Shown: piece by piece, positions 5,408-25,506 of the stretch
How the letters are laid out: each line of letters begins with the position of its first letter
Numbering within the stretch: position 1 is the first letter of the stretch
Assembly (NCBI RefSeq): GCF_014695975.1
Contig: NZ_JACJPI010000082.1
Coordinates: forward strand, 56,568 to 88,567
Length of the DNA: 32,000 nt
Reading direction: 5' to 3'
Origin: Leptolyngbya sp. FACHB-321
Lineage (GTDB): Bacteria; Cyanobacteriota; Cyanobacteriia; Leptolyngbyales; Leptolyngbyaceae
Position numbers and translations under genes: made by a program
Notes under the pieces: generated by a model
Database searches by the model: none
The model's input: only the letters and a program-made list of their open reading frames with translations
Told to the model about the DNA's origin: nothing

Positions 5408-5794
5408 ATGGATCCAATGACACTCATTTTGACGGCGCTGGTTGCAGGGACAGCTAAAGCAGCGGGCGATGCGGCTCCAGATGCCTACAAAGGGTTGAAA
5501 GCACTGATTCAGAAGAAGTTTGCCAGTCAACCCAAACCAGAAGCGGACAAGGCAGCGATGGTACTGGAAGAACATGAGAAAGACCCAGAAACCTATGAGG
5601 CGGCGCTGAAGAAAAAGTTGACGGAGGCCGAGGTGGACAAAGATGCTGCAGTGGTTGAGAAGGCTCAAGAATTGCTGCAGGTTTTAGACCCCCAAGGGAC
5701 AGCAAGTGGTACCTACAATACAACCGTTGCAGGCGATGTCTACGGTGTGGCGGGTCGAAACGAAGGCACTGTGAATCAAACGTTCAACAAGTAA
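5408..5794 (+). CDS. small helical Bell/HeLo-like protein with a C-terminal amyloid-signalling-type motif (module 1)
   Basis: AGGAG lies 9 nt upstream of the ATG. The N-terminal hydrophobic helix is MDPMTLILTALVAGTAKAAG, the middle is charged and helical (…EHEKDPETYEAALKKKLTEAEVDKDAAVVEKAQELL…), and the tail is …DVYGVAGRNEGTVNQTFNK. The tail is repeated at the N-terminus of the next gene. Confidence 0.75.
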   Translation: MDPMTLILTALVAGTAKAAGDAAPDAYKGLKALIQKKFASQPKPEADKAAMVLEEHEKDPETYEAALKKKLTEAEVDKDAAVVEKAQELLQVLDPQGTASGTYNTTVAGDVYGVAGRNEGTVNQTFNK

Positions 5795-5807
5795 CTGGGT
5801 AAAGAGA

Positions 5808-8800
5808 GTGGGTATGTCAGATGAGGGTGCGGCAAACAGCGTTCACGCCAAGGATGTCTATGGTGTGGCTGGAGACAACCGAGGAACGATTATTCAAAAT
5901 TTCGTTTCTCAGGAAGCTGAAGTTAAGATTCAAAGTCGCCCACTCATCAAAGGTTCTCCTTACCTGGGGTTGGAAAAATTTGCACCGGACGATAAAGATA
6001 AGTTTTTTGGGCGAGAGCAATGGATTACTGCTTTAAGCCATGCTCTCTTAGCCGAAAACCACAATGTCTTGCTCCTACTCGGTGCCTCTGGCAGTGGTAA
6101 ATCATCGCTGATTGGAGCCGGACTCATTCCTAAGCTGAAAGATGATTGGGGTGCCTTTAAGAATCTGACGTTTGTCCCCGATGAGAACCCCTTTCAGTCT
6201 CTGCATAGCTGCTTGAGTAGTTTGTATGGGCAAGCCAAGGCGAAGATTGCGCAACCAGACGCTCAAATGCATAAGGCAGGGACGCTGGTGCGAGTAGTGG
6301 AAGCGCTGAAGCAGGAGCAGCAGTGGCTGATTTTTATTGATCAGTTTGAAGAGCTCTTTACTAGAACCCCGGAAACTGAACGTCATCGGTTTGTGAGGGA
6401 GCTGGTGCAACTGATTCAAGCCTCTCAGCAGGACAACTCGCTCAAAATTGTGCTGACGATGCGGGCTGACTTTCTAGATCGGTTGAGTCCTTATCCAGCG
6501 CTGGGCTTGCTTCATGATCGCCGTAGTCGGATGCTGACGGATATGAGCGATGGCGAGTTAACGCTAGCGATCAAGGAGCCTGCAGCGCGGAATGGCGTTG
6601 TGTTTGAGCCAGGCTTGATCGAGGCGATCATCGCTGATTACAGGGCAGGAGCAGGTTCGCTGCCCCTGTTGCAATACACGCTGGATTTGCTGTGGCAAAA
6701 CGACGATGTGAGTGATCGCGTCCTCAATCGGCAAACCTATGAAAACCTTGGCGGGGTCACAGGCGCACTGCAAACGCAAGCAAACAAAATCTATGGAGAA
6801 CTGGATGAAAAACAGCAAGAGGCCGTTAAAAAAATCTTTTTTGAATTAATCGACTTAGCCAATGATCAGCCCGTGAGCCGACGCACCCCTAAAGCGCTCT
6901 TTTGCGATGGAGGAACGCAACAAACTGTTCTGGAAACACTGATTGAGAAACGCTTGCTGGTCAGCCGTGGGGAAGGGCAGCAAGCCACCATTGAGGTCGC
7001 TCATGAGGCTTTGCTGAGAACCTGGGAAGTGTTGCAACAATTGATTCAAGACCGGAAAGACATCATTATCTTGAGAGGTCAATTGATTGCTGACGCGAAG
7101 CTGTGGCGGGCACGACGGGCAGAGAGTGAGCAAACAGCCAGGGGCGATCTCTGGAGCGGGTGGAAGCTCGATCGAGTGCTGGATTTGCAAACAAAACAAG
7201 TGCTGGATCGCCTCGACCCAGACATTCAAGCCTTTGTCGAAGCTAGCCATACCTGGCGCGATCATCAGGCGCAAAAAGATCGTCAAATCGCCCGCCGCAT
7301 TACTGTAGGCAGCAGCATCTTTGCTGGCTTGATGGCAACGGCAGCCATCTTCTCTGCCATTCAGGCAAGACAGGCAGAGATTGAGCAAATTCAAACGTTC
7401 GTGGCACTTTCAACGGCGAAACTTGCCAACGATCAAACTTTAGAAGCAGGTATTGAAAGTATCCGGGCTGGAAAAGCGCTGCAACGATCATTCTGGCAGC
7501 AGTCCTTCTGGTCAGCATTTTTGCCCGATTCTCGACTGCGGCTGCCCGTCTTAAGACAATTACAACAGATGGCCAATACTGGGCAAGAGCGGCAGCGCCT
7601 CGAAGGCCATCAAGGGCTTGTCTCTAGAGTGTTGTTCAGCCCTGATGGCCAGCAACTCGCTACCAGTGGATACGACGGCACCGCACGCCTGTGGGACACC
7701 AACGGCAAGCCACTCGCCACCCTCCAAGGTCATCAAGGGCCTGTCCTTAACGTGGTGTTCAGCCCCGATGGTAAGCAACTCGCTACCAGTGGAGTTGACG
7801 GCACCGCACGCCTGTGGGACACCAACGGCAAGCCACTCGCTACCCTCCAAGGTCATCAAGGGTTTGTCTCTAGCGTGGTGTTCAGCCCCGATGGTCAGCA
7901 ACTCGCTACCAGTGGATACGACGGCACCGCACGCCTGTGGGACACCAACGGCCAGCCACTCGCTACTCTCAAAGGCCATCAAGGGCGTGTCTCTAGCGTG
8001 GTGTTCAGCCCCGATGGTCAGCAACTCGCTACCAGTGGCGACGACGGCACCGCACGCCTGTGGGACACCAACGGCAAGCCCATCGCTGCCCTCAAAGCTC
8101 ATCAAGGGTTTGTCTCTAGCGTCGTGTTCAGCCCCGATGGTCAGCAACTTGCTACCAGTGGCGAAGACGGCACCACACGCCTGTGGGACACCAACGGCCA
8201 GCCCATCGCTACCCTCCAAGGCCATCAAGGGACTGTCTGGAGCGTGGTGTTCAGCCCCGATGGTCAGCAACTCGCTACCAGTGGAGCTGACGGCACCGCA
8301 CGCCTGTGGGACACCAACGGCCAGCCCATCGCTACCCTCCAAGGCCATCAAGGGCTTGTCGATAGCGTGGTGTTCAGCCCCGATGGCCAGCAACTCGCTA
8401 CCCATGGCGAAGACGGCACCACACGCCTGTGGAACACCAACGGCCAGCCTATCGCTGCCCTCAAAGGCCAGCAAGGGCGTGTCTCTAGCGTGGTGTTCAG
8501 CCCCGATGGTCAGCAACTCGCTACCCATGGCGAAGACGGCACACCACGCCTGTGGGACACCAACGGCCAGCCTATCGCTGCCCTCAAAGGCCATCAAGGG
8601 CGTGTCTCTAGCGTGTTGTTCAGCCCCGATGGCCAGCAACTCGCTACCAGTGGCGAAGACGGCACCGCACGCCTGTGGGACACCAACGGCAAGCCCATTG
8701 CTACCCTCAAAGGCCATCAAGGGCGTGTCTCTAGCGTGTTGTTCAGCCCCGATGGCCAGCAACTCGCTACCAGTGGCGAAGACGGCACCGCACGCCTGTG

Positions 8801-9050
8801 GGACACCAACGGCAAGCCCATTGCTACCCTCCAAGGCCATCAAGGGCTTGTCGATAGCGTGGTGTTCAGCCCCGATGGTCAGCAACTCGCTACCCATGGC
8901 GAAGACGGCACACCACGCCTGTGGCAAGTAGGGGCAATCGATGAGCTGCTCTCAAAAGAATGTGATTGGGTGCGAGATTATCTGAAAAATAGCCCCAATG
9001 TTGCCGAGGGCGATCGGCATCTTTGCGATGGTATTGGTAGCCAAAAGTAA
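5808..9050 (+). CDS. NLR-like STAND NTPase (nSTAND/NACHT-type P-loop) - TM helix - 11 WD40 repeats (module 1)
   Basis: Start is GTG 5808 or ATG 5814. The N-terminal motif is DVYGVAGDNRGTIIQNF. Leader SPYLGLEKFAPDDKDKFFGRE; Walker A LLLLGASGSGKSSL; Walker B LIFIDQFEELFT. A hydrophobic helix ITVGSSIFAGLMATAAIFSAI precedes eleven 41-aa WD40 units (GHQG.V..V.FSPDGQQLAT.G.DGTARLWDTNG.P.A.L.). Confidence 0.92.
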   Translation: MGMSDEGAANSVHAKDVYGVAGDNRGTIIQNFVSQEAEVKIQSRPLIKGSPYLGLEKFAPDDKDKFFGREQWITALSHALLAENHNVLLLLGASGSGKSSLIGAGLIPKLKDDWGAFKNLTFVPDENPFQSLHSCLSSLYGQAKAKIAQPDAQMHKAGTLVRVVEALKQEQQWLIFIDQFEELFTRTPETERHRFVRELVQLIQASQQDNSLKIVLTMRADFLDRLSPYPALGLLHDRRSRMLTDMSDGELTLAIKEPAARNGVVFEPGLIEAIIADYRAGAGSLPLLQYTLDLLWQNDDVSDRVLNRQTYENLGGVTGALQTQANKIYGELDEKQQEAVKKIFFELIDLANDQPVSRRTPKALFCDGGTQQTVLETLIEKRLLVSRGEGQQATIEVAHEALLRTWEVLQQLIQDRKDIIILRGQLIADAKLWRARRAESEQTARGDLWSGWKLDRVLDLQTKQVLDRLDPDIQAFVEASHTWRDHQAQKDRQIARRITVGSSIFAGLMATAAIFSAIQARQAEIEQIQTFVALSTAKLANDQTLEAGIESIRAGKALQRSFWQQSFWSAFLPDSRLRLPVLRQLQQMANTGQERQRLEGHQGLVSRVLFSPDGQQLATSGYDGTARLWDTNGKPLATLQGHQGPVLNVVFSPDGKQLATSGVDGTARLWDTNGKPLATLQGHQGFVSSVVFSPDGQQLATSGYDGTARLWDTNGQPLATLKGHQGRVSSVVFSPDGQQLATSGDDGTARLWDTNGKPIAALKAHQGFVSSVVFSPDGQQLATSGEDGTTRLWDTNGQPIATLQGHQGTVWSVVFSPDGQQLATSGADGTARLWDTNGQPIATLQGHQGLVDSVVFSPDGQQLATHGEDGTTRLWNTNGQPIAALKGQQGRVSSVVFSPDGQQLATHGEDGTPRLWDTNGQPIAALKGHQGRVSSVLFSPDGQQLATSGEDGTARLWDTNGKPIATLKGHQGRVSSVLFSPDGQQLATSGEDGTARLWDTNGKPIATLQGHQGLVDSVVFSPDGQQLATHGEDGTPRLWQVGAIDELLSKECDWVRDYLKNSPNVAEGDRHLCDGIGSQK
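7605..8930 (+). repeat. 11 tandem 123-bp coding repeats (WD40 units), near-identical at the DNA level
   Basis: Unit starts fall at 7605 + n*123. Units 9 (8589-8711) and 10 (8712-8834) differ at a single nucleotide by my reading. Confidence 0.92.
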
Positions 9051-10775: not shown

Positions 10776-11210
10776 ATGGAACCGCTCTCAACTGCCGCTA
10801 TTGCTGTAGCTACGCTCATCCTCAAGAAAGCCTTGGAAAAGACTGGCGAAAAGCTAGGCGAGGCGGTTAGTCATCAGGCAGCAGAGCTATTGCAGCTGAT
10901 TCAACGGAAAAACTTACCCCAGAGCAAAGCCATTGCCCAAGCAGACCAGCCGATCGACGCGGGACGAGCTGTACTGGAACTGGACACCGCTACGAAAAGT
11001 GACCCAGAACTTGCACAAAGCGTGGCAAACTTAGCGGGAGCGGTGCAAGCCGAGCCCGCCTTAGCAGCGGCCATGCCTGCTTATGCGGCGGCTTTACAAA
11101 CAGCCCCACCATCAACCACTCAGAACTTTGGCAAACTGGCTGAAAGCCTGCCAGCCCTAAAGAACGTGTTTCAGGGCAATACCTTCAATGCCCCAGTGAC
11201 GTTCAACTGA
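10776..11210 (+). CDS. small helical Bell/HeLo-like protein (module 2), ends at an in-frame TGA
   Basis: MEPLSTAAIAVATLILKKALEKTGEKLGE…, helical and Ala-rich, with tail …TTQNFGKLAESLPALKNVFQGNTFNAPVTFN. It is a clear paralogue of ORF 13395-13769 (MEPLSFTAAAIATLVFSETFKEVGKTLGK…NVYNAPVTI…). Confidence 0.72.
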   Translation: MEPLSTAAIAVATLILKKALEKTGEKLGEAVSHQAAELLQLIQRKNLPQSKAIAQADQPIDAGRAVLELDTATKSDPELAQSVANLAGAVQAEPALAAAMPAYAAALQTAPPSTTQNFGKLAESLPALKNVFQGNTFNAPVTFN

Positions 11211-11309
11211 CTGGAGTCGCCCGTACAGGCACGGGTCAAGTCACCCCCCCTCACACGACAGGAATATCAGAATCGTCAAGCCCTGCTGACCAAGGTAAAA
11301 AACTTTTGG

Positions 11310-13091
11310 GTGAAGGGGGTGCTCGAACAGTCGCTCCATGAGCAGGTGCTTATGACATTGGGACTCGAAGAGAGACCCGCAGCCGTTGCACGTCCCTGGA
11401 ATTTGTTGCTGGAGACAGGTGGACAAGCGCCAAGAACACTACCGGCTGGCACAACCGTTGTCTCTCTCTTTGACCAAATTGGCACTGGTCGCACTTTACT
11501 GATTCTGGGGGAACCCGGTTCAGGCAAAACCATTGCCCTACTCCAACTAGCGCGTGACCTCATCGCTCGTGCTGAACAGGAGGTTGAGCATCTCATCCCT
11601 GTTGTGCTCAACCTCTCTACCTGGGCACCCAATCGGCGTAAGGGACAGGCAGCAGCGTTGCTGCCCCTGAATGCTTGGCTCGTGGAGGAGTTAAGCAGTA
11701 AATACCAGGTGCCCAAGCAAGTGGGTGAAACCTGGATCAAACGGCAACAACTCCTGCTGCTGCTTGACGGCTTGGACGAAGTACGAGCAGAACTTCGTAA
11801 TGCTTGCGTTGACGCCCTCAATGCTTTTCAACAAGAGAACTCGGCAGAAATGGTAGTCTGTTGCCGCCGCCAGGAGTATGAGTTGCTTCATAGTCGCTTG
11901 CGTTGCCAGACGGCTCTTTACCTTCAAGCTTTGACACTCCAGCAAAGCCAGTCCTACCTCAACCAGTTGACCGCTGACTTAACCGGGTTGAAGCGCTTAT
12001 TGACGACTGACGCAGCACTGCAAGCACTCGCGCAGTCTCCCCTATGGCTCAATATCATGGTGCTGGCCTATCAAGGTGTGGCGCTGACCGACCGACCTGA
12101 GACGCAGGCGATCGAAGCGAAGCAGCAACAACTCTTCAATACTTACATCAGGCGTATGCTTACACATAGGGGGCAGGCTATGCCGTACTCGCCCTTCCGC
12201 ACACTGGGCTGGTTAATCTGGTTAGCGCAACAAATGGTACGGGAGTCTCAGACCGTCTTTCTCCTTGAGACCATGCAGCCGCTTTGGTTACAACAGGGTA
12301 GGGCGAAGCATTTCTATCGCGTGGGCACCCTGTTGTTTGTTGGGCTGTTTGTTGGGCTGTTTGTTGGGCTGTTTCTTGGGCTGATTTTTGGGCTGTTTGC
12401 TGGGCTAGTTGGTGGGCTGTCTTTTGGATTGATTGCTGGGTTGGTTGCTGTGTCATCTGGGGAAAAAATTGAACCTGTTGAGAAACTGACATGGTCATGG
12501 AAAAAGGCTAGAGAGGAGCTGCCTAGGGGGCTGCTTTTTGGGCTAGGTGGTTTGCTAGTTGGTTGGCTAGTTGGTTTGCTGGCTGGTTTGCTAGTTGGCT
12601 TGCTGGTTGGGGGGCTGTCGGTCACTAAAATCGAGGTAACAACAAAACCAAATCAAGGTATGTGGAACTCAGCAAAAAACGCTGTACTTGCTGGGCTAGT
12701 TGTTGGGCTGTTTGTTGGGCTGTTTCTTGGGCTGATTTTTGGGCTGTTTGCTGGGCCGATTTTTGGGCCGATTTTTGGGCTGTCTAATGTGTTTGTTGGG
12801 CTGTTTCTTGGGCTGTTTGTTGGGCTGTTTCTTGGGCTGTTTGTTGGGCTGATTTTTGGGCTGTTTGTTGGGCTGAACTATGGCGGTAGAGTTTGTATCC
12901 AGCATTTCACCTTGCGCCTCATTCTTTGTCGGCACGGGTACATGCCCTGGAACTATGCTCGTTTTCTCGACAAAGCAGTCGAACACCTTTTCCTGCAAAA
13001 AGTTGGCGGTGGCTATATTTTCATCCATCGGCTGTTGCTGGAACACTTTGCCGCTATGACCGACGAGCAGGTCAGAGAACTTCTCAACTGA
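11310..13091 (+). CDS. NACHT-family STAND NTPase with a C-terminal Gly/Leu-rich polytopic membrane region (module 2). Listed from GTG 11310, but the conserved leader extends in frame back to 11211
   Basis: Walker A LLILGEPGSGKTIALLQLA; Walker B LLLLLDGLDEV; …VVCCRRQEY…. The C-terminus has about 6 hydrophobic segments of (GLxx)n, then …GGGYIFIHRLLLEHFAAM. The upstream in-frame codons 11211-11309 encode LESPVQARVKSPPLTRQEYQNRQALLTKVKNFW, typical of pre-NACHT leaders, with no ATG/GTG/TTG. Confidence 0.85.
   Translation: MKGVLEQSLHEQVLMTLGLEERPAAVARPWNLLLETGGQAPRTLPAGTTVVSLFDQIGTGRTLLILGEPGSGKTIALLQLARDLIARAEQEVEHLIPVVLNLSTWAPNRRKGQAAALLPLNAWLVEELSSKYQVPKQVGETWIKRQQLLLLLDGLDEVRAELRNACVDALNAFQQENSAEMVVCCRRQEYELLHSRLRCQTALYLQALTLQQSQSYLNQLTADLTGLKRLLTTDAALQALAQSPLWLNIMVLAYQGVALTDRPETQAIEAKQQQLFNTYIRRMLTHRGQAMPYSPFRTLGWLIWLAQQMVRESQTVFLLETMQPLWLQQGRAKHFYRVGTLLFVGLFVGLFVGLFLGLIFGLFAGLVGGLSFGLIAGLVAVSSGEKIEPVEKLTWSWKKAREELPRGLLFGLGGLLVGWLVGLLAGLLVGLLVGGLSVTKIEVTTKPNQGMWNSAKNAVLAGLVVGLFVGLFLGLIFGLFAGPIFGPIFGLSNVFVGLFLGLFVGLFLGLFVGLIFGLFVGLNYGGRVCIQHFTLRLILCRHGYMPWNYARFLDKAVEHLFLQKVGGGYIFIHRLLLEHFAAMTDEQVRELLN
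12334..12876 (+). repeat. three blocks of 12-nt-periodic coding repeats (gggctgtttgtt-like; GLFV/GLFL/GLIF)
   Basis: gttgggctgtttgttgggctgtttcttgggctgatttttgggctgtttgctgggc occurs almost identically near 12340-12400 and 12700-12760. Confidence 0.85.
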
Positions 13092-13302
13092 CTGAGCTAA
13101 TGTGCAAGACACGGCTCTGAGCGTCTTCGTCAACCGCAGACCAAGCGCTTTCCTTGATCGGCCACTGGTTGGCACAATTGCGCCGTAAGCAGCGCTCCTG
13201 CTTCTGAGCCTCGCTGCGATCGATGCTCTCAAACTCAACTTGGTTAAAGCTTTCCAGCTCATCTTGCACTTTTTGTCGTATGCCAGCTTCACGCCTGCTC
13301 AA
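13084..13302 (-). CDS. doubtful small ORF (72 aa), possibly a DUF29-like fragment
   Basis: TTG start, convergent with the NACHT gene and overlapping its stop by 8 nt. …QDELESFNQVEFESIDRSEAQKQERCLRR… weakly recalls the DUF29 …NLIEEIESLGRSEKR… motif. A decayed paralogous copy lies at 16441-16520. Confidence 0.25.
   Translation of the reverse strand: MSRREAGIRQKVQDELESFNQVEFESIDRSEAQKQERCLRRNCANQWPIKESAWSAVDEDAQSRVLHISSVS
13204..13281 (-). repeat. about 80-bp repeat, copy A (inverted relative to copy B)
   Basis: The reverse complement atacgacaaaaagtgcaagatgagctggaaagctttaaccaagttgagtttgagagcatcgatcgcagcgaggctcag is roughly four-fifths identical by eye to 16441-16520. Confidence 0.7.
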
Positions 13303-13394
13303 AGCGGGTCGTGTTCTTTCTCAAATCTGCTGTTTTGCGGAACCACTGACATTCTTGGAGTAGAAAGAAGCAGTCTCTACTTGGAGTACTGCTA

Positions 13395-13769
13395 ATGGAA
13401 CCGCTCTCATTCACTGCCGCCGCGATCGCAACCCTCGTTTTTAGTGAAACGTTCAAGGAAGTTGGCAAAACGTTAGGGAAAGGCACCCTGGAGACGGGTG
13501 GAAAACTCGCTACTTTGCTGTGGAAAAAGCGACCAGGGGCGGCCAAAGCGCTGCAAGCTGGGGAAGCAGCGCCGGAATATAAGGACGCGATCGTCGAAGT
13601 AGAAACCTTAGCTGTAAACGATGCCGAAATTCAGGAGGCAATCGCGGCAGTGGTGCAAGCCTTGCAAGCTCAGCCGCAGGGACAGCAGATCGTCAATTCC
13701 TTCGTGCAGAAAGCAGCGAATGTGTATAACGCTCCGGTGACAATCGAGAAGCAAGACATTAACTTTTGA
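13395..13769 (+). CDS. small helical Bell/HeLo-like protein (module 3), ends at an in-frame TGA
   Basis: MEPLSFTAAAIATLVFSETFKEVGKTLGKGTLE…, helical, with tail …QQIVNSFVQKAANVYNAPVTIEKQDINF. It is a paralogue of ORF 10776-11210. Confidence 0.72.
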   Translation: MEPLSFTAAAIATLVFSETFKEVGKTLGKGTLETGGKLATLLWKKRPGAAKALQAGEAAPEYKDAIVEVETLAVNDAEIQEAIAAVVQALQAQPQGQQIVNSFVQKAANVYNAPVTIEKQDINF

Positions 13770-13853
13770 CTGCCGTCGTCGGCTTCCGGCTCCGACCAAG
13801 TAACGCCGTTCTATGACATTCCCTATCGGTCGTCTGCAAACTTTGTCGGACGG

Positions 13854-16427
13854 GTGGATGAATTGGCGCGACTGCATGAGCTTTTGCAAGCGTCTGAAGG
13901 AGCCGTGATTTCAGCCGTGGCCGGCATGGGTGGCCTAGGTAAGACGCAGCTGGCGGTGCAGTATGCAAAGCGAAACCAGGCGAGCTATCCGGGGGGTATC
14001 GCTTGGTTCAATGGCCGCACTGGAGATCTGGCGACTCAGCTCGTCTTGAAAGCAGAATTTGCTCTACATTTACCAGGCTTACAGGCAGCGAAAGAGCGCA
14101 TCACGGAAGCGGAAGCGCTAGCGCAGTGGTGTTGGCAGCATTGGCAGCCTGATGGCCTGACGCTGATCGTGCTCGATGATGTGATGCACTGGGCGGAGTG
14201 CCGCTCGTTCCTCCCGAAAGCCGATCGCTTTCGAGTGTTGGTGACGACGCGCTTGCAAGCTCTCTTACCCAATTTTCCCACTATCACGCTAGAGGTGCTG
14301 CATCCCAACGAGGCGCGATCGCTGCTGGCCTCTTTAGAGAAATTTGGACGCGTTGCCCAAGACCCTGGGCTTGCCGATCAGCTATGTGCGGGGTTGGGCT
14401 ATTTGCCGCTGGGAATCGAGTTGGTCGGCTGCTATCTGGCGAGTGATCGCTATAAAACGCTCTCTCAAGTGTGGGCTGCATTGCAGGCCAATGGGATGCA
14501 AGATTCGGCGCTGGAACGATCGCCTGACTATGAAATGACAGCCGAGCGAGGCGTCAAGGCGGCGTTTGCTTTGACCTGGGAAACGCTGTCAGCAGAGGCG
14601 CGACGAGTGGCACGCTTGCTGAGTTATTTTGCGCTCGATTGGATTGCGTGGGACTGGGCGGAATGGATAATGCAGTGCGTAGAGGGAGAGACGTATCAGT
14701 TGGGGGCACTGAAGGCACAGTTAGAGAACGCCTCACTGGTGCAGATTGAATGGGAGCGGTTGGGCTGGTGTCGTCTGCATCCCCTCGTGCAGCAGTTTTT
14801 GCGGGATGAAGAAAGAATCGACGTTGAGACGACAGGAGATGATGCTTTACGAGCGGCGTTTGTGGCAGAGATGATCGAGATCGCGAGTCAGCTGCCAGAT
14901 AACCCAACGACAAAGGAGCTTGAAGGGTTCGGAGTGGTGCGATCCCATGTCCAAGAAGTCGCCAAGCGCTTTCTTTGGCCTCAAGCCGATGCTGACTTCG
15001 ATTGGATCTACAACGGACTTGCCCGCTTTTATCAAGGACAAGCCCTATTTAAGGAGGCAGAAGCTCAGTATGCAGAGTGTTTGGCGCTAACGCAACAACT
15101 GTTTCAGGGCGACCACCCCACTGTGGCACGCAGTTTCAACAACTTGGCAGGACTCTACGACTCACAAGGACGGCTGAGTGAAGCCGAACCCTTGTATGTG
15201 CAAGCCTTAGCGATGACGAAACGGCTGTTTGAGAGCGACCACCCTGATTTAGCACGCAGTCTTAACAACTTGGCCTACCTCTACAACGCACAAGGACGGC
15301 CGAGTGAAGCCGAACCCTTGTATGTGCAAGCCTTAGCGATGACGAAACGGCTGTTTCAGGACGACCACCCCACTGTGGCAACTAGTTTCAACAACCTGGC
15401 ATTGCTCTACAAGGCACAGGGACGGCTAAGTGAGGCCGAACCCTTGTCTGTGCAAGCCTTGGCGATGATGCAACGGCTGTTTCAGGGCGACCACCCTGAT
15501 GTGGCAACCAATCTCAACAACTTGGCAGGAGTCTACAAAGCACAGGGACGGCTAAGTGAGACCGAACCCTTGTCTATGCAAGCCTTGGCAATGAGGCAAC
15601 GACTGTTTCAGGGCGACCACCCCGATGTGGCAATCGGTCTCAACAACTTGGCATCTCTCTACTATTCACAAGGACGGCTGAGTGAAGCCGAACCCTTGTA
15701 TGTGCAAGCCTTGGCGATGACGAAACGGCTGTTTCAAGGCGACCACCCCGATGTGGCAACCAATCTCAACAACTTGGCCTATCTCTATAAGGCACAAGGA
15801 CGGCTGAGTGAAGCCGAACCCTTGTATGTGCAAGCCTTGGCGATGACGAAACGGCTGTTTCAAGGCGACCACCCTGATTTAGCACGCAGTCTCAACAACT
15901 TGGCAGGAGTCTACAACGCACAAGGACAGCTGAGTGAAGCCGAACCCTTGTATGTGCAAGCCTTGGCGATGACGAAACGGCTGTTTCAGGGCGACCACCC
16001 CACTGTGGCAACCAATCTCCACAACTTGGCAGCGCTCTACAACGCACAAGGACGGCTGAGTGAAGCCGAACCCTTGTATGTGCAAGCCTTGGCGATGACG
16101 AAACGGCTGTTTCAAGGCGACCACCCCACTGTGGCAACCAATCTCCACAACTTGGCAGCGCTCTACGGCGCACGAGGACGGCTGAGTGAAGCTGAACCCT
16201 TGTATGCACAGGCTTTGGCGATGTTTGAGAGAACATCAGGCAGCCATCATCCCAACACTCAAATGGTGCGAAAAAATCTAGAGACTACCCGTCAGCAGAT
16301 GGGGCTGCCCATCCGCAGCCTTCACGAGACCAAGCTACCCACCCACGCCAATTCATCGCTCTTTCAAATCGTGCAAGCAATTCGCCGCTTCATTCGCTCC
16401 CTTCTGCGCCGCTTAGGATGGCTTTAG
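13854..16427 (+). CDS. NB-ARC-type STAND NTPase with 9-10 TPR repeats (module 3). Listed from GTG 13854, but the conserved leader extends in frame back to 13770
   Basis: P-loop AVAGMGGLGKTQLA; LTLIVLDDV; RVLVTTR; GYLPLGIELVG (GLPLA-like). Nine 42-aa TPR units follow (LFQGDHP.VA..LNNLA.LY.AQGRLSEAEPLYVQALAMTKR). Upstream in-frame codons 13770-13853 encode LPSSASGSDQVTPFYDIPYRSSANFVGR with no ATG/GTG/TTG. Confidence 0.9.
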   Translation: MDELARLHELLQASEGAVISAVAGMGGLGKTQLAVQYAKRNQASYPGGIAWFNGRTGDLATQLVLKAEFALHLPGLQAAKERITEAEALAQWCWQHWQPDGLTLIVLDDVMHWAECRSFLPKADRFRVLVTTRLQALLPNFPTITLEVLHPNEARSLLASLEKFGRVAQDPGLADQLCAGLGYLPLGIELVGCYLASDRYKTLSQVWAALQANGMQDSALERSPDYEMTAERGVKAAFALTWETLSAEARRVARLLSYFALDWIAWDWAEWIMQCVEGETYQLGALKAQLENASLVQIEWERLGWCRLHPLVQQFLRDEERIDVETTGDDALRAAFVAEMIEIASQLPDNPTTKELEGFGVVRSHVQEVAKRFLWPQADADFDWIYNGLARFYQGQALFKEAEAQYAECLALTQQLFQGDHPTVARSFNNLAGLYDSQGRLSEAEPLYVQALAMTKRLFESDHPDLARSLNNLAYLYNAQGRPSEAEPLYVQALAMTKRLFQDDHPTVATSFNNLALLYKAQGRLSEAEPLSVQALAMMQRLFQGDHPDVATNLNNLAGVYKAQGRLSETEPLSMQALAMRQRLFQGDHPDVAIGLNNLASLYYSQGRLSEAEPLYVQALAMTKRLFQGDHPDVATNLNNLAYLYKAQGRLSEAEPLYVQALAMTKRLFQGDHPDLARSLNNLAGVYNAQGQLSEAEPLYVQALAMTKRLFQGDHPTVATNLHNLAALYNAQGRLSEAEPLYVQALAMTKRLFQGDHPTVATNLHNLAALYGARGRLSEAEPLYAQALAMFERTSGSHHPNTQMVRKNLETTRQQMGLPIRSLHETKLPTHANSSLFQIVQAIRRFIRSLLRRLGWL
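15099..16232 (+). repeat. 9 tandem 126-bp coding repeats (TPR units)
   Basis: Unit starts fall at 15099 + n*126. Long stretches are identical between units (e.g. ...ggacggctgagtgaagccgaacccttgtatgtgcaagccttggcgatgacgaaacggctgtttca...). Confidence 0.9.
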
Positions 16428-16935: not shown

Positions 16936-18901
16936 TCACTTTGTCGTAGGAAGTAGGCTCTGCACCATCTCTCTGGTCTGATCATCTAAGAAGGCAATGT
17001 ACAAGCGTTTAGTCGCCCTAGTCATGAGAATGCGGTAGACATTGAGTAAGAACGGCACGATCGCCACATCATCGAGCTGAGAAAGTTGAGGATCAACATT
17101 GTCATAGTGAGGGTAGCCACCACGCTGGCCGGGTCTTGTCTGCGTGCGTAGTGGGTTGCCGACCCAACGCGCTTCACGCCAGAGAAGGTCACGTGACCAA
17201 AGTAAGCAGACGGTTGGCAGATCAAAACCTTGGGCCGTGTAGACAGAGCCAAAACTTTGTGCGCCCGAAGGGGCTGTAGCCCAAAACTCGCCTCTGGCAA
17301 GGCCCTTGGCCAGACGCCCAGGTTTTCCTTTCTTCGGCGCTTCCCAGGGATAGGCAATGACGTCTGGAATGATCACCTCGTCGACCAGAGAACCATCTGC
17401 GTGGGGTTTTTGGGCCCAGTCCCAACACCATCCTGTCAGCAGCCGCGACTGATTGGGGAACTGTGCCTCCCAGTCTTCGTGGATTTTTACCAAGTCAGCC
17501 GGGCTAGCAACCACCTCACACTCGAAGGCTCCTACATCGCCAAGTGGCTGCAGAGTCGGCTGGGGTGAAGCAAAGAGCTCATCAACCCAGTGCAGAAATT
17601 CGAGTGAGCCTGCGAGTCGGTGCTGCGCTTCTAATTGGTAATGGCATACCGTAGCGTGCTCTTGAGCAGCAGCTGTCTGAATGTCAGCAATCTGGTTGGC
17701 CTCTTTCGGTTGAATAATCTGCCTCTCGTCGATGAAAAAGATACTGACTTTGGCAGCTCTAATAATTTCGCGCACGATGGGCAGTGACGCATCTAGCGCC
17801 GCACGTGTCTTGTACTGTCGTTGACCAGAGGCCCAATCAATGGCAGCGATGCCATCCATTCTGTGAGCTTCATCGATCAAAACGACGTCACAGGCATTTT
17901 GAGGTCGATATCTAAAGCGATCAGTGTAGGAAATAAGAGGCTGAAGATGATTGCCCAACTCCTTTTGCACAGACGTCTTCATTGCAGCTGACTTGACGAC
18001 ATAGGTTGGACGTCGATTCTCTTCAAGGATTGCAGCCAAAGACTGCAGCGCAATGGCCGTCTTCCCCGATCCAGGTCCGCCTGAAACAACGATCACGGCT
18101 TTTGCTTAGTCTCTGACCGCACTGATGAGTGCGCGACGGATGCCATCGTAGACGAGGTACTGCTCGGGAATCAGTGGGAACTTGTCACGACCGTTGATGA
18201 CGGCCACTGCAAATTCGATAAATTGCCTGCTGGGTCGGATTGCACTGGAGACAAAACGGTCGTAAACCACTTGTCCATCGCCTCGTTTGAGCTCTCGGCT
18301 CAGTGTGCGCGCATAGCTCGATTTCAGGTGCGCCAATGGTCGGCGCTCTCTCCTGTAGCGACGAGTATTGGCCGCCTCGCAGGCTACTGATCGCAGGCTC
18401 AGGCAGACTAAACAGGACAGCGTAGGCACTACAGCTGAGAGCAGCGCGGTGATGACTGTGGCAAGACTCAACCCAATAACGCAAACGCTCCACAAAGAGA
18501 GCGGCTTGCAAGGATGGGTGAAGAATCTCGGTAATCCTAGAGCCATAGACATTGGCACGAACAAAGTCGGGTGAGTCTTCGACAACCTCAAAACTGCTCC
18601 ACTGCTTTAACTCTAGAACGATGAGGCGTTGTGTGCCAGCAGCATCAACGCCAAAGAGGACAACATCCGCGCGGCAGCGCGCGATTGGTTCAAGCAATTC
18701 TAAGACAATCATGGCCTCTGGATGGACATGCTTGACCAAACGCGCTATGTGCGGTGCGTTGGCACTCCAAGAGTATTGTTCCGACTTGCCAAACCCAAAC
18801 CCGGCCGTGCGCGCGCCCTCTTCCATCAAACGCTGCAAGCTGCCAGTCCTGACATCATTCAGAAAGGTGCTTACGGTCGCTGCATAAGCGCACTTGGTCA
18901 T
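16936..18901 (-). pseudogene. DUF2075-type (nuclease-like N-domain + P-loop helicase-like) gene, disrupted by a frameshift and an in-frame stop
   Basis: The N-terminal part (frame of 18185-18901) reads …RADVVLFGVD…LIVLELKQWS…HPSLQA…. Homology then continues in another frame (…RGDGQVVYDRFVSSAIRPSRQF…FPLIPEQYLVYD…) after a shift near 18310-18340. That frame reads …AVRD-TAA(18106-18108)-AKAV-IVVSGGPGSGKTAIAL…, straight into ORF 16936-18096 (…VVLIDEAHR…). A sequencing error cannot be excluded. Confidence 0.65.
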
Positions 18902-19111: not shown

Positions 19112-21655
19112 GTGCCCGTTGCCTGTTGGCCCAACTGGGTGCAGGGGCATCCTAACTGGAAGCCCAGTGGCCTAGAGGAGCATCATCACTTGGATTTTAT
19201 TGTCATTGACACAGAGGGCAGCCCCGCACTGCGTGAGCTGGCCGTGCTCGACAGCCAAGGGCAACTCCTCTACGAAGCCTTTGTAGCAGAGCATCCAGCC
19301 CATGCTAATAGCTACCGTCCCCTGAAACCGCTGCGAGCGATTGTGCAAGACATCACTCGTCTAGCACGGAACAAGTCGGTCGTCTGCCATTACGCCCAGC
19401 ATGATCTAGACGTGCTGCAGGGCAGTTTTCGCCAAGCTAATATGCCTTGGATCAGATTCAAGACTCTCTGTACCTGGGAACTGGCCAAGCAACACTTGCC
19501 GCCCTTTGAGAGTTACTCGTTAGCACACCTCAGCCAGTGTCTGCAGCTACAAGTCAACGGCAGGCGCTTCAACGCCGAGCAAGCGCATACCGCCCACTAC
19601 GATGCGGCCTTTACCCATCAGCTTTACTTAACCATCCTGGAGCACCAACAAAGGAGAGCCTTGCCCACGCCATCACCACACACACCCAATCCCTACAGCA
19701 GCAGCCGGGTGGATAACCCCTTTCAAGACCACCTGGACCTGCAGGCGGTGTATCAAGCTGAATTTGCCCTCCTGAAAGCAGCCTTAGGTGATGTCAAGGC
19801 TGACCCCAATCAGCAAAGCAAAGGCGCGGTCATACTGGGAGCTGCTGGCTCCGGTAAAACCCACCTGATCATGCGTCTGGCTAAAGAGCTGCTCCGCACT
19901 AATCGCCTGTTGTTTATCCGCCAACCCAACAATGCAACGGCGGTACTGCACCACACCTACTCACGCATCTTAGAGTCATTAGCGGAGCCCGTGGCCGGTA
20001 GTGATCGCACTCAATTGGAACTGCTCCTAGCCAACAGCTTCGTCAACATTCTCAGTTCACTGGAGCAAGTGACGGGGACACAGAAAGGGCGGGAAATTCT
20101 GGCCGCGTTTCAGGAGAATAGCTTGCAGCTTTACAGCCGCTCTGGCACGGAAGAGACGCAACGGCATCGGGCCCGGTGGGAGTATATTGAACGCCATATT
20201 ACGGAGTGGTGGGGTCGACATTACACCGCCGCTGGCGATGCCGTCACCATCCTCAGGGGCATCATCAAGTTTTGCAGCTACAGCGACCCCCACAAAAAAG
20301 ACCTGGTACGGCGCTGGCTCGCCGCTTCAGAACTGGAGACGGCGGAAGCAGAGAGTATTGGGTTAGAGAACTGGCAAGAGGACATGAGCCGGGAAGAGTT
20401 TGCTCTGGCTGCCATCACCGTCTTTGGTCGCTTATCCACCCTCGATGAACCACTCATCATCGTGTTCGATCAGCTCGAGAGCTTGGGACTGCCACACAAC
20501 ACCCTGATCCTGGAGAGCTTTGGTGCAGCCGTGAAAGAGTTGTTGACCCATGTGCCCCACAGCCTCATCATCCTGAACCTGTTTCCAGAGCGGTGGGAGC
20601 AGTTCCAAAGCTGCTTTGATGGCTCGGTCGTCGATCGCGTGTCCGATTACATTGTCCCGCTGGAGCGTCCCAGTGCCGCCCAGCTCGAAGCACTGCTCAG
20701 CTTGAGAGCCCAAGCGGTAGGACTGGAGTGGCAGACCCTCTTCACGCCCTCGGCACGCGCCAGCATCCTGAGTCAGCCCTCCATCCGCGCGGTGCTGAAG
20801 CAGGCTGGTGCTTACTTCCACGCGCGCGTCCACAACACCCCGCTACCCCGACCGACGGACGCAGCCACACCGCTGGCCGAGCGCTCGGTGACGGCACGCC
20901 TGCACCAACTGGAGCAAGTCATGGCTCAGATGGTGAGTCTCCTGCAGCCCTACTGGAGCAGCCTATCGCCAAGCGACCTACCGTCTAGCCGTGCAGAGGT
21001 GGCACCCCTCGGTCTGAGCCCGCCGGACGCCGAGTCCTTACCACCTGACCTAGACACTACCAGCGCCCCAGTGTCAGTCGCAGCTGTAGTCGCGGACTAT
21101 TTGAGCCAAAAGCGGCTGGCACTCGCGGCAGACTACACGCGACCCACGATCATTCAGGATGCCAATGAAATTGGTAAACTAGCGGCGATCGCTGCGGCGT
21201 TTCAGTTACATCAAGCCTTAGAGTTCGAGCCCTTGCGTGTCGGCAGAAGCAAGCTACCCGAGCACTTACGGATTCGAACCGCGCAACAGGAGTTTGTCAT
21301 TGGCTTCCTGAACGCCAGTGGTACGACTTTCACAGCGAGAATCAAAAATTTTAACCAGCTTGTGGCGCTGCATCCAGAGATAAAGTTTACCTTGCTCCGG
21401 GATGGGCGCGAACCCAAGCTTACGGGTGCTGTCGGTTTGGCAGAGATTGAAAAGCTGCAGCATAGTCCAAACGGTCAGTTTCAGGTGATGACACCAGACG
21501 ACCGCATCAGTTTTGAACTCATCTACAACTGTATTATCGATATTCAAGAACAGGACTTAGAGGTGGCGCTCGCGCTGGCGCTGCCGCTCCTGCTAGACTC
21601 CTTGAGTGACTACTGGCTCATGGCGGCCTTGCGTGGTCAGCCCTTGCACGCGTGA
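19112..21655 (+). CDS. DEDDh (DnaQ-like) 3'-5' exonuclease fused to a P-loop NTPase and a large uncharacterised C-terminal region
   Basis: ExoI DFIVIDTEG; ExoII VVCHYAQHDLDVL; ExoIII AHTAHYDAAF (H-x4-D). Walker A GAAGSGKT (19838-19861); a Walker B-like LIIVFDQLE lies about 200 aa later. About 390 aa follow with no motif I recognise. The start is uncertain (GTG 19112 or TTG 19190). Confidence 0.85.
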   Translation: MPVACWPNWVQGHPNWKPSGLEEHHHLDFIVIDTEGSPALRELAVLDSQGQLLYEAFVAEHPAHANSYRPLKPLRAIVQDITRLARNKSVVCHYAQHDLDVLQGSFRQANMPWIRFKTLCTWELAKQHLPPFESYSLAHLSQCLQLQVNGRRFNAEQAHTAHYDAAFTHQLYLTILEHQQRRALPTPSPHTPNPYSSSRVDNPFQDHLDLQAVYQAEFALLKAALGDVKADPNQQSKGAVILGAAGSGKTHLIMRLAKELLRTNRLLFIRQPNNATAVLHHTYSRILESLAEPVAGSDRTQLELLLANSFVNILSSLEQVTGTQKGREILAAFQENSLQLYSRSGTEETQRHRARWEYIERHITEWWGRHYTAAGDAVTILRGIIKFCSYSDPHKKDLVRRWLAASELETAEAESIGLENWQEDMSREEFALAAITVFGRLSTLDEPLIIVFDQLESLGLPHNTLILESFGAAVKELLTHVPHSLIILNLFPERWEQFQSCFDGSVVDRVSDYIVPLERPSAAQLEALLSLRAQAVGLEWQTLFTPSARASILSQPSIRAVLKQAGAYFHARVHNTPLPRPTDAATPLAERSVTARLHQLEQVMAQMVSLLQPYWSSLSPSDLPSSRAEVAPLGLSPPDAESLPPDLDTTSAPVSVAAVVADYLSQKRLALAADYTRPTIIQDANEIGKLAAIAAAFQLHQALEFEPLRVGRSKLPEHLRIRTAQQEFVIGFLNASGTTFTARIKNFNQLVALHPEIKFTLLRDGREPKLTGAVGLAEIEKLQHSPNGQFQVMTPDDRISFELIYNCIIDIQEQDLEVALALALPLLLDSLSDYWLMAALRGQPLHA

Positions 21656-22308: not shown

Positions 22309-22503
22309 AGAATTAAACGACACTTTAAAGAATTAGCTTCCCTTTCTCCCAGAGAGACTCAGAAGGCGTATAATCCCTACTCTACAGCAGTTTCACGCCT
22401 CTCAACGCCTTTTATTTTCTTTAAGCAATTCTTAAATCAAAATACTTCCTTTTCCTTTCAGAGCTTGCTAAAGTGCTTTAAAGCAAATTGCTTCCCTTTT
22501 AGC
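22299..22503 (+). repeat. putative TnsB-binding repeats of the transposon end
   Basis: tgtACATTAAAGAATTAAAC (22299-), cACTTTAAAGAATTAGCTTCCCTTT (22321-), inverted ttctttaagcaattcttaaat (22418-), and tgCTTTAAAGCAAATTGCTTCCCTTT (22474-). Confidence 0.5.
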
Positions 22504-22518
22504 AAGCGAAGGAGTGTC

Positions 22519-24564: not shown

Positions 24565-24570
24565 CTGGAA

Positions 24571-25506
24571 ATGGCTCAACCTCACCCCATCCCACAACCA
24601 AATGAGCGATCGCAACCAGTCCCTAGCCAATACCCAGCCAACCTCGCGCCTCCCCAGCCTATTGAGGCAGTGCCCCAGCGATCGCCCGAGTTACAGGTTG
24701 AAGTTGACCGCATTCGTGACAGTGAAACTTACACAGCCGTTGCTCGTGACCAACTCCTGTTCGACTGGCTGTCTTCGCAGCGAGAATCACGTGCCAGTGG
24801 CTTTGTCTTTGGAGTGAATTTTGGAGATTTGAGGAAATCTTGCCAATTTTATCAGATGCAATACGTGCGGAAACGGGGAAACCTATTCCTGACTCCCATG
24901 CCAGTGCTCTACACTGACGTTGAACAGTACGGTTCCCCGACTGACCTTTTTATTAGCATCACTCAGGCAGCAGGGAACCCCTTCGCAGGCATGGGATCGT
25001 TACGGGATTTGAGAAAACAAGCGATCGGTACGCTGAACAAATTTCAAACGAGAACTCTGATTATTGGTTATGCAGAAGCTTTGTCTGTTGAGGCGCTCAA
25101 AGAACTTGTAAAAATGAGGCGAGATCTAAAAATTTCGATTATTCTTGCTGGTTCTATGTCCTTATTTGAGTTCTTTGACCAACTTGATAAGCAGCGTGGT
25201 CAAAAATACAAGGAGATTAGGAACGCCTTTCTTGATTGCTGCCAATATCAGCGGTTCGAGCAGAACCAAATAGAGACAATGCTCGAAAGATGGGAACTTC
25301 AAGTCTTAGGCTCCTGGTCTAAGCAGCTTAATTTGAAGGCGATTCCTGGCGTTCCTAACTTCCTCTATACCCGTTGTGGAGGGCAGGCTGAACCTTTGTA
25401 TGAGATGCTACGCCAAATAGCAATTCAAGCGTTAGACGAACCGCTACAAATCAGCACAGCCACCCTCACAAAGCTATTCATATCGAAGCGAGTAGCAGGC
25501 ACATAA
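24571..25506 (+). CDS. tnsC: TnsC/TniB-like AAA+ protein with degenerate Walker A and Walker B motifs
   Basis: It sits between tnsB and tniQ. …LFDWLSSQRESRASGFVFGVNFGDLRKSC…MPVLYTDVEQYGSPTDLF…TRTLIIGYAEAL…ISIILAGS… aligns with ShCAST TnsC as I remember it. However, there is no GxxxxGK[ST] and no hhhhDE anywhere in the 311 aa. Confidence 0.8.
   Translation: MAQPHPIPQPNERSQPVPSQYPANLAPPQPIEAVPQRSPELQVEVDRIRDSETYTAVARDQLLFDWLSSQRESRASGFVFGVNFGDLRKSCQFYQMQYVRKRGNLFLTPMPVLYTDVEQYGSPTDLFISITQAAGNPFAGMGSLRDLRKQAIGTLNKFQTRTLIIGYAEALSVEALKELVKMRRDLKISIILAGSMSLFEFFDQLDKQRGQKYKEIRNAFLDCCQYQRFEQNQIETMLERWELQVLGSWSKQLNLKAIPGVPNFLYTRCGGQAEPLYEMLRQIAIQALDEPLQISTATLTKLFISKRVAGT

Follow-up and report, generated by a model that had tools for sequence, protein, structure and literature searches.

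In a 32,000-nucleotide (nt) stretch of DNA from the cyanobacterium Leptolyngbya sp. FACHB-321 (contig NZ_JACJPI010000082.1, positions 56,568 to 88,567 of the forward strand; hereafter the window), we identified two gene pairs in which a small Bell-like effector and a STAND nucleoside triphosphatase (NTPase) of the NLR type are joined by an in-frame UGA codon and a conserved RNA element. These pairs, modules 2 and 3, stand beside a classical two-gene pair, module 1, and are probably explained by programmed readthrough of the UGA, a reading to which we give about three chances in four. An earlier note on this DNA had proposed that a leaky stop in module 2 would yield both a free effector and an effector-motif-NLR fusion. 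This model is supported by the UGA-C context, a covarying RNA structure, selection on the sequence that follows the stop (the leader), the existence of fused relatives, and an anticorrelation between the element and a second copy of the effector motif, from which we infer the readthrough itself. Taken together, the components of the junction match the textbook signature of programmed stop-codon readthrough.

In module 2, the effector open reading frame (ORF2; 10776..11207, + strand, 144 aa) encodes a Bell-like helical domain and a C-terminal motif, and ends in NAPVTFN before the TGA at 11208..11210 (+), the proposed readthrough codon. The junction (11199-11312) reads ...GTG ACG TTC AAC TGA CTG GAG TCG CCC GTA..., and the leader (11211..11309, +; LESPVQARVKSPPLTRQEYQNRQALLTKVKNFW) consists of 33 stop-free codons in frame with ORF2, none of them ATG, GTG or TTG, the first such codon being GTG 11310. 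The NACHT NTPase (11211..13091, +; Pfam NACHT, 7.6e-10) can be read either in continuation of ORF2 or from GTG 11310, and in no other way. The first ~13 leader codons overlap the RNA element, and the conserved NACHT N-terminal part follows from ~11244 (PLTRQEYQNRQALL...); further on, the protein has a hydrophobic Gly-rich repeat region and then a conserved C-terminal domain. The arrangement recurs in module 3, where the effector ORF (ORF3; 13395..13766, +, 124 aa), of a second Bell-like subfamily, ends in ...NAPVTIEKQDINF. ORF 13395-13769 terminates as TGA CTG CCG TCG, and the same frame runs into an NB-ARC+TPR protein (13770..16427, +), whose first canonical start is GTG 13854. The two junctions are identical at 10/12 positions (TGACTGCCGTCG at 13767 in module 3, TGACTGGAGTCG in module 2), and the NTPases downstream belong to different clades by Pfam, NACHT in module 2 versus NB-ARC+TPR in module 3. 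The sequence thus bears out the earlier note on the end of ORF2, the open frame behind it, the lack of a start codon in the leader, the repeat of the junction and the difference between the NTPases. ORF2 and ORF3 are each 100% identical to H6F76_25335 and H6F76_25345, respectively.

We investigated the conservation of the junction in 80 genomic loci of the ORF2 family, which were fetched by protein patterns only, so that their selection was blind to the stop codon and to the sequence downstream. TGA and the downstream element were present in 74/80 loci, and in 69 of these 74 the frame stayed open for at least 200 codons (200-1200) or to the end of the contig. The first ATG, GTG or TTG lies 17-114 codons downstream of the TGA in the genome loci, except in L053 and L068. 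Over the 200 codons past the TGA, frame 0 contains 26 stops, all in a few degraded copies, and each other frame ~1014. Long ORFs of the same loci end in TAA (100), TGA (68) and TAG (44), TGA accounting for 32% of this background, whereas all 74 junctions have TGA. Similarly, C stands at +4 after 15% of the background TGAs versus 93% (69/74) of the junctions in this unselected genome set. Pooling all sets gave 142 distinct junction sequences, with TGA in 142/142 and +4 C in 137/142, the metagenome subset having been chosen for +4 C by its search pattern. The same element was found in 6/6 further loci of the ORF3 subfamily (L082-L087). The junctions come from Nostocales, Microcystis and Leptolyngbya-like taxa, and as the same architecture occurs in 142 distinct junctions from independent assemblies, an assembly error is excluded.

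The nucleotides that follow the stop are conserved beyond what the encoded peptide needs. The spacer has the consensus CUR NAN YC, with C at +4 and U at +5 conserved. Where the first codon after the UGA encodes Leu it is CTG (35), CTA (29), TTG (1) or CTC (1), although TTA prevails at several of the other conserved Leu columns. The third codon is NCG without exception: it is TCG in 61/61 cases, against a mixture of TCG, TCT, TCA and TCC at another conserved Ser column. In the genome loci, the codon directly after the UGA is CUG in 36 and CUA in 27 of 74, and among all 142 distinct junctions it is CUA, CCA, AAG, AUC, CUC or CAG in 66. The earlier note had asked whether TGA-CTG is conserved among orthologues: the TGA is, but the next codon is not fixed as CTG, and sense codons (TCA or TGG) occupy the stop position in rare fused relatives. 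ATG, GTG or TTG directly follows the TGA in 3/74 distinct junctions. One of these (L021) lacks the element; in the other two, L053 and L068, the element is intact, and single-base variants giving TTG or GTG lose the +4 C and create a possible adjacent start. We additionally noted a junction reading TGA CTG TAG in a metagenome-assembled genome of Brasilonema angustatum (L054 / L135), in which a second in-frame stop is followed by 537 in-frame codons and the element is intact, which marks either a copy in decay or a junction with two stops.

The RNA element begins with a stem, S1, of 5-6 bp (GYCYG...CRGRY), which starts from the G of the NCG codon, 8 nt after the UGA, and encloses a purine-rich 8-nt loop. 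In module 2, the spacer (11211..11218, +; 8 nt, CUGGAGUC) is followed by G 11219, which completes the NCG codon and opens S1 (11219..11236, +). Here GCCCGU (11219-11224) pairs with ACGGGU (11231-11236) around the loop ACAGGC, and the stem is present in the minimum free energy (MFE) fold. The module 3 element (13767..13808, +), which a covariance model of the junction matches with E = 0.005, comprises the UGA (13767-13769), the spacer (13770-13777) and an S1 (13778..13796, +) in which GUCGG (13778-13782) pairs with CCGAC (13792-13796). Across 74 distinct sequences, S1 pairs in 98.4% of cells, versus 12-34% for structures slid by 1-3 nt, and RNAalifold, run unguided, predicts exactly S1. The pair types are CG 50/UA 22/UG 2; CG 31/UA 25/UG 12/GC 2; GC 68/CG 4; and GU 44/GC 29, and double, compensatory changes occur at 3/5 pairs. 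One covarying pair couples a synonymous third position (CCY/TCY) with the second position of an Arg/Gln codon, and another couples Pro/Ser to Val-Ala/Thr five residues apart in the linker; we see no protein-level reason for either.

A second stem, S2, probably makes the element an H-type pseudoknot, judging from the complementarity of the 3' part of the S1 loop (GGGA and similar) to a C-rich tract 8-9 nt past S1, across an A-rich segment, L3 (AAAGUUAAA). S2 has a mean of 4.0 Watson-Crick bp versus 2.6 in shuffled partners, with 4-6 bp in relatives. The result was repeated in an independent metagenome set in which S2 was outside the search pattern (4.03 versus 2.59 bp). The arms vary widely: GAGA/UCUC, AGAGA/UCUCU, GCGGA/UCCGC, CGGA/UCCG, CAGGA/UCCUG, GAGCUU/AAGCUC, GGGAG/CUCCC, CGGGAU/AUCCCG and AGGGCA/UGCCCU. 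In module 3 (13787..13808, +), CGGC (13787-13790) can pair with GCCG (13805-13808), and the module 2 candidate (11227..11251, +) is weak, pairing AGG (11227-11229) with CCU (11249-11251). Support for S2 is moderate, and S2 is less secure than S1. S1 loops of 5, 8 or 11 nt occur, with the total of loop and L3 preserved, and the ORF3 subfamily swaps one loop nucleotide for one L3 nucleotide; these variants keep the frame, and the element thus behaves as expected if it is translated. An outer stem, UGACU/AGUCA, in the MFE fold of the window was dropped, being neither conserved nor compensated in the CCA, AAG and Microcystis L3 variants. Within the window and the flanks of the loci, the covariance model (R1) matches junctions only, with one weak exception. 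The exception, at L003:3644-3700 (26 bits, E = 0.04), lies upstream of a fused Calothrix gene and may be a remnant of another junction element. Rfam 15, SECIS families included, gave no match over 11100-13950 at E<=10, and ARAGORN found no tRNA or suppressor gene within the window.

The leader is coding sequence under purifying selection. Downstream of the RNA element, its ratio of nonsynonymous to synonymous differences per site (pN/pS) is 0.12-0.37 in four NLR groups, and between the window and its closest relative, L001, codons 18-28 have pS 0.27 and pN 0. In alignments, the leader segment PLTRQEYQNRQALLTKVKNFWVKGVLEQSLH matches residues in the interior of single-ORF NACHT proteins (P0109, P0113, P0119, P0149, P0152, P0218), which, together with the pN/pS values, confirms the suggestion that the leader is conserved pre-NACHT sequence. 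Upstream of this segment, single-ORF NACHT relatives carry a trypsin-like peptidase (P0109), protein kinases (P0152, P0218, P0283), repeat motifs (P0113, P0119) or a Bell-like domain (P0149). GTG 11310 is thus a conserved Val codon inside the NACHT module, and a start there would give a truncated protein without the effector. The hydrophobic Gly-rich repeats of the module 2 NACHT ORF (~12300-12950; GLFVGLFVGLFLGLIFGLFAGL...) stand in place of WD or TPR repeats and are followed by ...WNYARFLD...FLQKVGGGYIFIHRLLLEHFA. The same architecture recurs in relatives with kinase, peptidase or Bell N-termini (P0149, P0152, P0218), and such proteins may form a class of membrane-embedded sensors.

Two relatives have a sense codon at the position of the stop. 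In Calothrix membranacea (L003; representative protein P0149), TCA at the site gives a true Bell-motif-linker-NACHT fusion, and the RNA structure has decayed. In L081/P0001 the codon is TGG; this metagenomic locus (ENA ERZ1300041 NODE_3881; 75% identity) has a single mismatch in S1 and, further on, a frameshift in the NACHT region, and is either a decaying fused copy or the product of an error-prone assembly. These fusions argue that the fused protein is viable. As sense codons are rare (~1-2% of loci), the stop itself appears to be selected, and both products therefore appear to matter.

The effectors have the features of Bell/BASS partners: small size (144 or 124 aa), a C-terminal G/N/Q/V-rich motif of ~25 aa and tight collinear linkage to an NLR (0 nt). 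We identified ~170 proteins of the ORF2 family, nearly all standalone, 138-152 aa in length and ending in ...NVFQGNTFNAPVTFN or variants of it, and ~25 homologues of the ORF3 subfamily (122-126 aa). The module 2 effector begins MEPLSTAAIAVATLIL..., with a hydrophobic N-terminal helix and Glu at position 2. Pfam gave no match to it, and its AlphaFold2 model contains five main helices with a C-terminus of low confidence (predicted template-modelling score 0.64; mean predicted local distance difference test score, pLDDT, 68). By size, N-terminal helix and modelled five-helix fold, it answers the description of a Bell-like domain. Its motif is N/Q/G-rich (residues ~117-144, nt 11124-11207, ...NFGKLAESLPALKNVFQGNTFNAPVTFN), and the form ...KLAE.IKNVFQGNTFNAPVTFN, of low pLDDT, is conserved across the ORF2 family.

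Module 1 (5408..9050, +) is a classical Bell-like/NLR pair, and serves as an internal control beside the two UGA modules. Its effector (5408-5794) ends in TAA (5792-5794). The NLR gene, which starts at 5808/5814 after a spacer of 13 nt and in a different frame from the effector, extends to 9050 and encodes nSTAND1 with ~11 near-identical WD40 repeats. This NLR carries its own copy of the motif (DVYGVAG.N.GT..Q.F; GDVYGVAGRNEGTVNQTFNK at the effector C-terminus and KDVYGVAGDNRGTIIQNFV at the NLR N-terminus), and the covariance model found no recoding element in the module. We compared the effector tail with the first 120 residues after the stop by Smith-Waterman alignment, and found no repeat of the effector motif at the NLR N-terminus in 81 UGA loci (median score 19, maximum 28; 95th percentile of the null 24). 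In contrast, classical pairs scored 73 (module 1), 71 (L072; effector KIGLVVQGGTVNIENLNF, NLR KIGLVVQGGKVTVHNLNV) and 37 (L055). This agrees with the observation in the earlier note that the module 2 NTPase, unlike that of module 1, has no motif copy of its own. Conversely, loci with TAA or an out-of-frame NLR (L055, L072, L004 and module 1) gave no covariance-model match, and their NLRs have both their own start and their own motif copy. The UGA element and the absence of an NLR-side copy go together without exception. Modules 2 and 3 are thus outside the BASS two-gene class, which is defined by paired motifs, and are not all-in-one NLRs, as a stop intervenes; nonetheless, their sequences suggest that they work like Bell/NLR systems.

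We additionally searched metagenome contigs for the RNA pattern and nothing else (TGACTRNANYCGYCYG-N8-CRGRYAAAGT). Of 81 matches, 78 were preceded by an ORF that measured at least 100 aa or ran off the contig, and 70 had a long in-frame downstream ORF. The upstream ORFs were classed by eye and Pfam, a regular expression for Bell-likeness having proved too strict, and represent many Bell-like subfamilies with differing N/Q/G-rich C-terminal motifs (AAQTQTIDQRNSTFNI, GVDNSPITIHYNTPPT, IQGNPVFHLGNTPPAG and others). The element also lies behind ORFs for TIR_2 (L119) and alpha/beta-hydrolases (L098, L134 and relatives), in frame with the ORFs downstream; the metagenome loci of these two kinds are L119, L098, L134, L141, L121 and L151. 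Downstream partners are NB-ARC-TPR, NACHT and other STAND proteins, and transmembrane (TM) proteins of ~220 aa. In this last group (L009, L012, L039, L041, L078, L007), the extension is not an NLR but a protein of ~210-240 aa that combines a TM helix with a conserved domain (...GIAIKYPDDWKPIEP), and the pN/pS of the leader in the group is ~1.4. The many classes of effector and partner thus suggest that the element is a general connector of effectors and sensors in cyanobacteria. We lean, by a small degree, towards a dedicated cyanobacterial recoding module (UGA-CUR, 8-nt spacer, H-type pseudoknot) that would connect effectors to STAND/NLR proteins in general, giving many free effectors, few fusions and an amyloid template on the sensor side. 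Among bacterial chromosomal genes, it would be the first signal to programme stop-codon readthrough by RNA structure.

Under programmed readthrough, modules 2 and 3 would each be one translational unit holding a leaky UGA. In module 2, ribosomes would initiate at ATG 10776 and make the Bell-like domain with its C-terminal amyloid-type motif. At UGA 11208 most would terminate and release the free 144-aa effector, majority termination being suggested by the strict conservation of the stop. In a minority, a near-cognate tRNA, tRNA-Trp being the likeliest, would read the UGA. The weak UGA-C(UR) context would promote this, as would the hairpin or H-type pseudoknot 8 nt downstream, a structure that would stand at the mRNA entrance when the UGA occupies the A site. 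UGA is the leakiest stop and UGA-C a weak context that is exploited in prfB, and cyanobacteria show a pattern of release factors RF1>RF2 (PMC5289835); UGA-CUA contexts and 3' structures stimulate readthrough in viruses and eukaryotes (PMC7026636). The readthrough ribosomes would go on in frame to translate a short linker, L-x-S-[PS]-x-x-E-R-x-K-x-x-P, and then the STAND NTPase, giving a low-abundance effector-motif-NLR fusion of 771 aa in module 2 and 1010 aa in module 3. The fusion would provide the sensor with the effector, and with the motif, of which classical Bell/NLR pairs have a separate second copy. Oligomerisation of the sensor could then cluster the motifs, which would template and activate the abundant free effector. 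A single motif sequence would serve both partners, guaranteeing that they match, and the efficiency of readthrough would set the sensor:effector ratio, presumably at a low value.

Termination followed by reinitiation, at the adjacent codon (CUG or another) or at the first downstream GTG or ATG, and perhaps by a ribosome that the structure holds in place, would instead produce a separate NLR without effector or motif. It would suit the zero intergenic distance of genes on one mRNA, the frequency of CTG as the next codon, the adjacent TTG or GTG in L053 and L068 and the ATG in the element-less L021, and stop/start coupling is common in prokaryotes (PMC6728339). However, a start that overlaps the stop or lies a few nt from it, by which such coupling is recognised, is present at only 3/74 junctions. 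The non-start codons after the UGA in 66/142 junctions, and a hairpin 8 nt downstream (structure at +11) that would block placement of a 30S or 70S ribosome at a start site, make initiation at the adjacent CUG, an option raised in the earlier note, improbable. The canonical starts that remain lie within conserved domain sequence, and the resulting NLR would differ from all fused or classical relatives in lacking an N-terminal effector or motif; the requirement for UGA with +4 C would also be left unexplained. We consider reinitiation unlikely. We consider it quite unlikely, too, that the junction is primarily a signal for RNA processing, stability or pausing, or a conserved DNA segment at which recombination would be favoured, with shuffling of effector and sensor modules as the result, the in-frame arrangement being secondary. 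One element of ~45 nt does join many effector families to many STAND or TM partners, as a shuffling hotspot would, and third-codon positions are unusually conserved through +41. Compensatory changes, nevertheless, point to selection on RNA pairing and not on DNA identity, and such a role would not explain the invariant UGA, the +4 C, the frame-keeping loop variants, the selected leader without a start or the motif anticorrelation. A recombination role could coexist with readthrough.

It is highly improbable that the loci are split or decaying genes, in which a nonsense mutation would have disabled an all-in-one effector-NLR gene and left the small ORF alone expressed. True fusions are known (L003/P0149), five loci are degraded further downstream (L006, L016, L019, L032, L054) and L081 has its later frameshift, but 142 distinct junctions agree in where the stop lies and in which stop it is, the 200-1200 codons downstream are open and under purifying selection, and the RNA structure is under covariation-type selection. 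The freshly broken gene that the earlier note had listed as an option is excluded by the family-wide conservation of TGA, element and open frame, and its judgement that two independent nonsense mutations at one spot are unlikely holds, a recent nonsense mutation being incompatible with so many TGA junctions. We find scarcely credible a dedicated decoding of the UGA, by selenocysteine through a SECIS-like hairpin or by a suppressor tRNA, that would make the fusion the main or only product. Bacterial selenoprotein genes, too, have a conserved hairpin close behind the UGA, and in bacteria UGA can be read by variants of tRNA-Trp whose anticodon stem has 4 bp (PMC13092985), which we take as a lead only. 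On the other side, the selenocysteine trait was not detected in Cyanobacteria (PMC1794560), the Rfam search returned no SECIS match, and the structure is a probable pseudoknot with a purine-rich loop. Sense relatives have Ser (TCA) or Trp (TGG), with no Cys homologues at the site, which falls within a disordered linker and has no redox function; in these loci TGA also serves as a normal stop, ending 32% of long ORFs, and the window contains no tRNA gene. A prfB-like +1 frameshift at UUU-UGA-C was rejected, the NLR being in frame 0 and the +1 and +2 frames containing ~1000 stops, and translational bypassing (hopping) is unlikely, as the loop variants (5, 8, 11 nt) keep the frame and frame 0 is open throughout.

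Several points weigh against programmed readthrough. The support for it comes from sequence only, and we found no case of readthrough stimulated by RNA structure in a bacterial cellular gene, selenocysteine insertion aside, in the searchable literature. The conserved junction could also, or instead, have another role at the RNA or DNA level, and the adjacent TTG or GTG of L053 and L068 and the ATG of element-less L021 allow some reinitiation. The loci are phylogenetically related, so that locus counts are not independent events. The stems are short (S1 5-6 bp, S2 3-6 bp), and S2 has only 3 bp in module 2. Cross-pairing of S2 arms between loci gives 3.5-3.9 bp, a high control value because most copies share GGGA/UCCC. 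Finally, folding energies of six single junctions were no better than those of dinucleotide shuffles (z +0.83 to -0.76), so that it is covariation and not thermodynamics that argues for a structure.

Among known systems, the gag-pol junction of murine leukaemia virus (MuLV), where 5-10% readthrough is obtained from a stop codon, a spacer of 8 nt and a compact pseudoknot (PMC4178896), is similar in placing an in-frame stop between an abundant product and a rare fusion, in its conserved spacer of the same length and in its two-stem pseudoknot. It differs in that its UAG is read as Gln on eukaryotic ribosomes with eRF1, whereas the junctions described here have UGA-C in bacterial chromosomal genes, with RF2, shorter stems and an L3 of 8-9 nt versus 18 nt. 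The coat/A1 gene of phage Qbeta resembles them in using UGA (read by tRNA-Trp) on the bacterial ribosome, with ~5% readthrough, to make a minor extended protein that works with the major short form (PMC7026636). However, it is a phage gene for which no downstream stimulatory structure is reported in PMC7026636, and the extension here is a STAND NTPase of 600-1200 aa. Selenoprotein genes share the in-frame UGA and a conserved coding-region hairpin within ~10 nt, and differ in the SECIS match, pseudoknot fold and Cys homologues discussed above, and in that this phylum is reported to be without selenocysteine decoding. prfB (CUU UGA C) likewise exploits a weak UGA-C termination context (PMC5289835), but through a +1 frameshift with an upstream Shine-Dalgarno-like stimulator, whereas here the frame is 0 and frame +1 is full of stops.

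Bell/BASS pairs of filamentous cyanobacteria, which have TIR2 and alpha/beta-hydrolase as alternative effectors (Dyrka et al. 2020, bioRxiv 10.1101/2020.01.06.895854), share with the UGA loci the small helical effector with an N/Q/G-rich C-terminal motif, directly upstream of a collinear NACHT or NB-ARC gene. The UGA loci differ in having neither an NLR-side motif copy nor an NLR start of their own, their two parts being joined by UGA and RNA structure. The screen of Dyrka et al. would miss them, because it required motifs on both proteins. All-in-one NLRs have the same architecture as the predicted readthrough product, and true fusions of this family exist (L003/P0149); here, however, the fusion is a predicted minority product and the effector is also free. 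We found no prior description of the junction in the full-text literature, a coverage outside which most subscription-journal papers lie, and an earlier description is possible. A term search of the Dyrka et al. preprint and of a 2024 antiphage amyloid-signalling preprint showed that neither speaks of stop codons, of readthrough or of junctions kept in frame. What appears to be new is the readthrough-type junction in NLR-effector genes; 3'-pseudoknot readthrough and NLR-effector signalling were already known.

The window looks like a defence island, with conflict-system-like genes surrounding the modules. A Tn7/Mu-like transposition module lies beside the NLR genes at 22465-25506, encoding a 699-aa protein with a Mu transposase C-terminal domain and then a TniB-like AAA ATPase, and a serine resolvase is encoded at 1091-1660. 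We additionally identified a Schlafen-group-3-like helicase (16936-18096, - strand), an 847-aa protein (19112-21655) with a weak nSTAND5/AAA_16 P-loop match and an N-terminal region that by eye is DnaQ-type exonuclease-like, and TerB with a dynamin-family GTPase (27599-30217).

Structure-stimulated stop-codon readthrough has so far been a hallmark of eukaryotic viruses. If programmed readthrough operates in modules 2 and 3, it would extend this mechanism to bacterial cellular genes, and would provide a portable signal of ~50 nt for study with RF2 ribosomes. It would add a third NLR/amyloid-type architecture to two-gene pairs and all-in-one fusions, one in which a single copy of the motif solves both motif matching and stoichiometry. 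Many cyanobacterial NLR-like genes would then be mis-annotated, with internal starts and their effector domains left off, and such systems would be undercounted in screens that need motifs on both proteins. The junction would also offer a handle on the control of toxic effectors, through UGA->UAA alleles (no fusion) and UGA->UGG alleles (fusion only), and readthrough efficiency would set, and could regulate, the ratio of sensor to effector.

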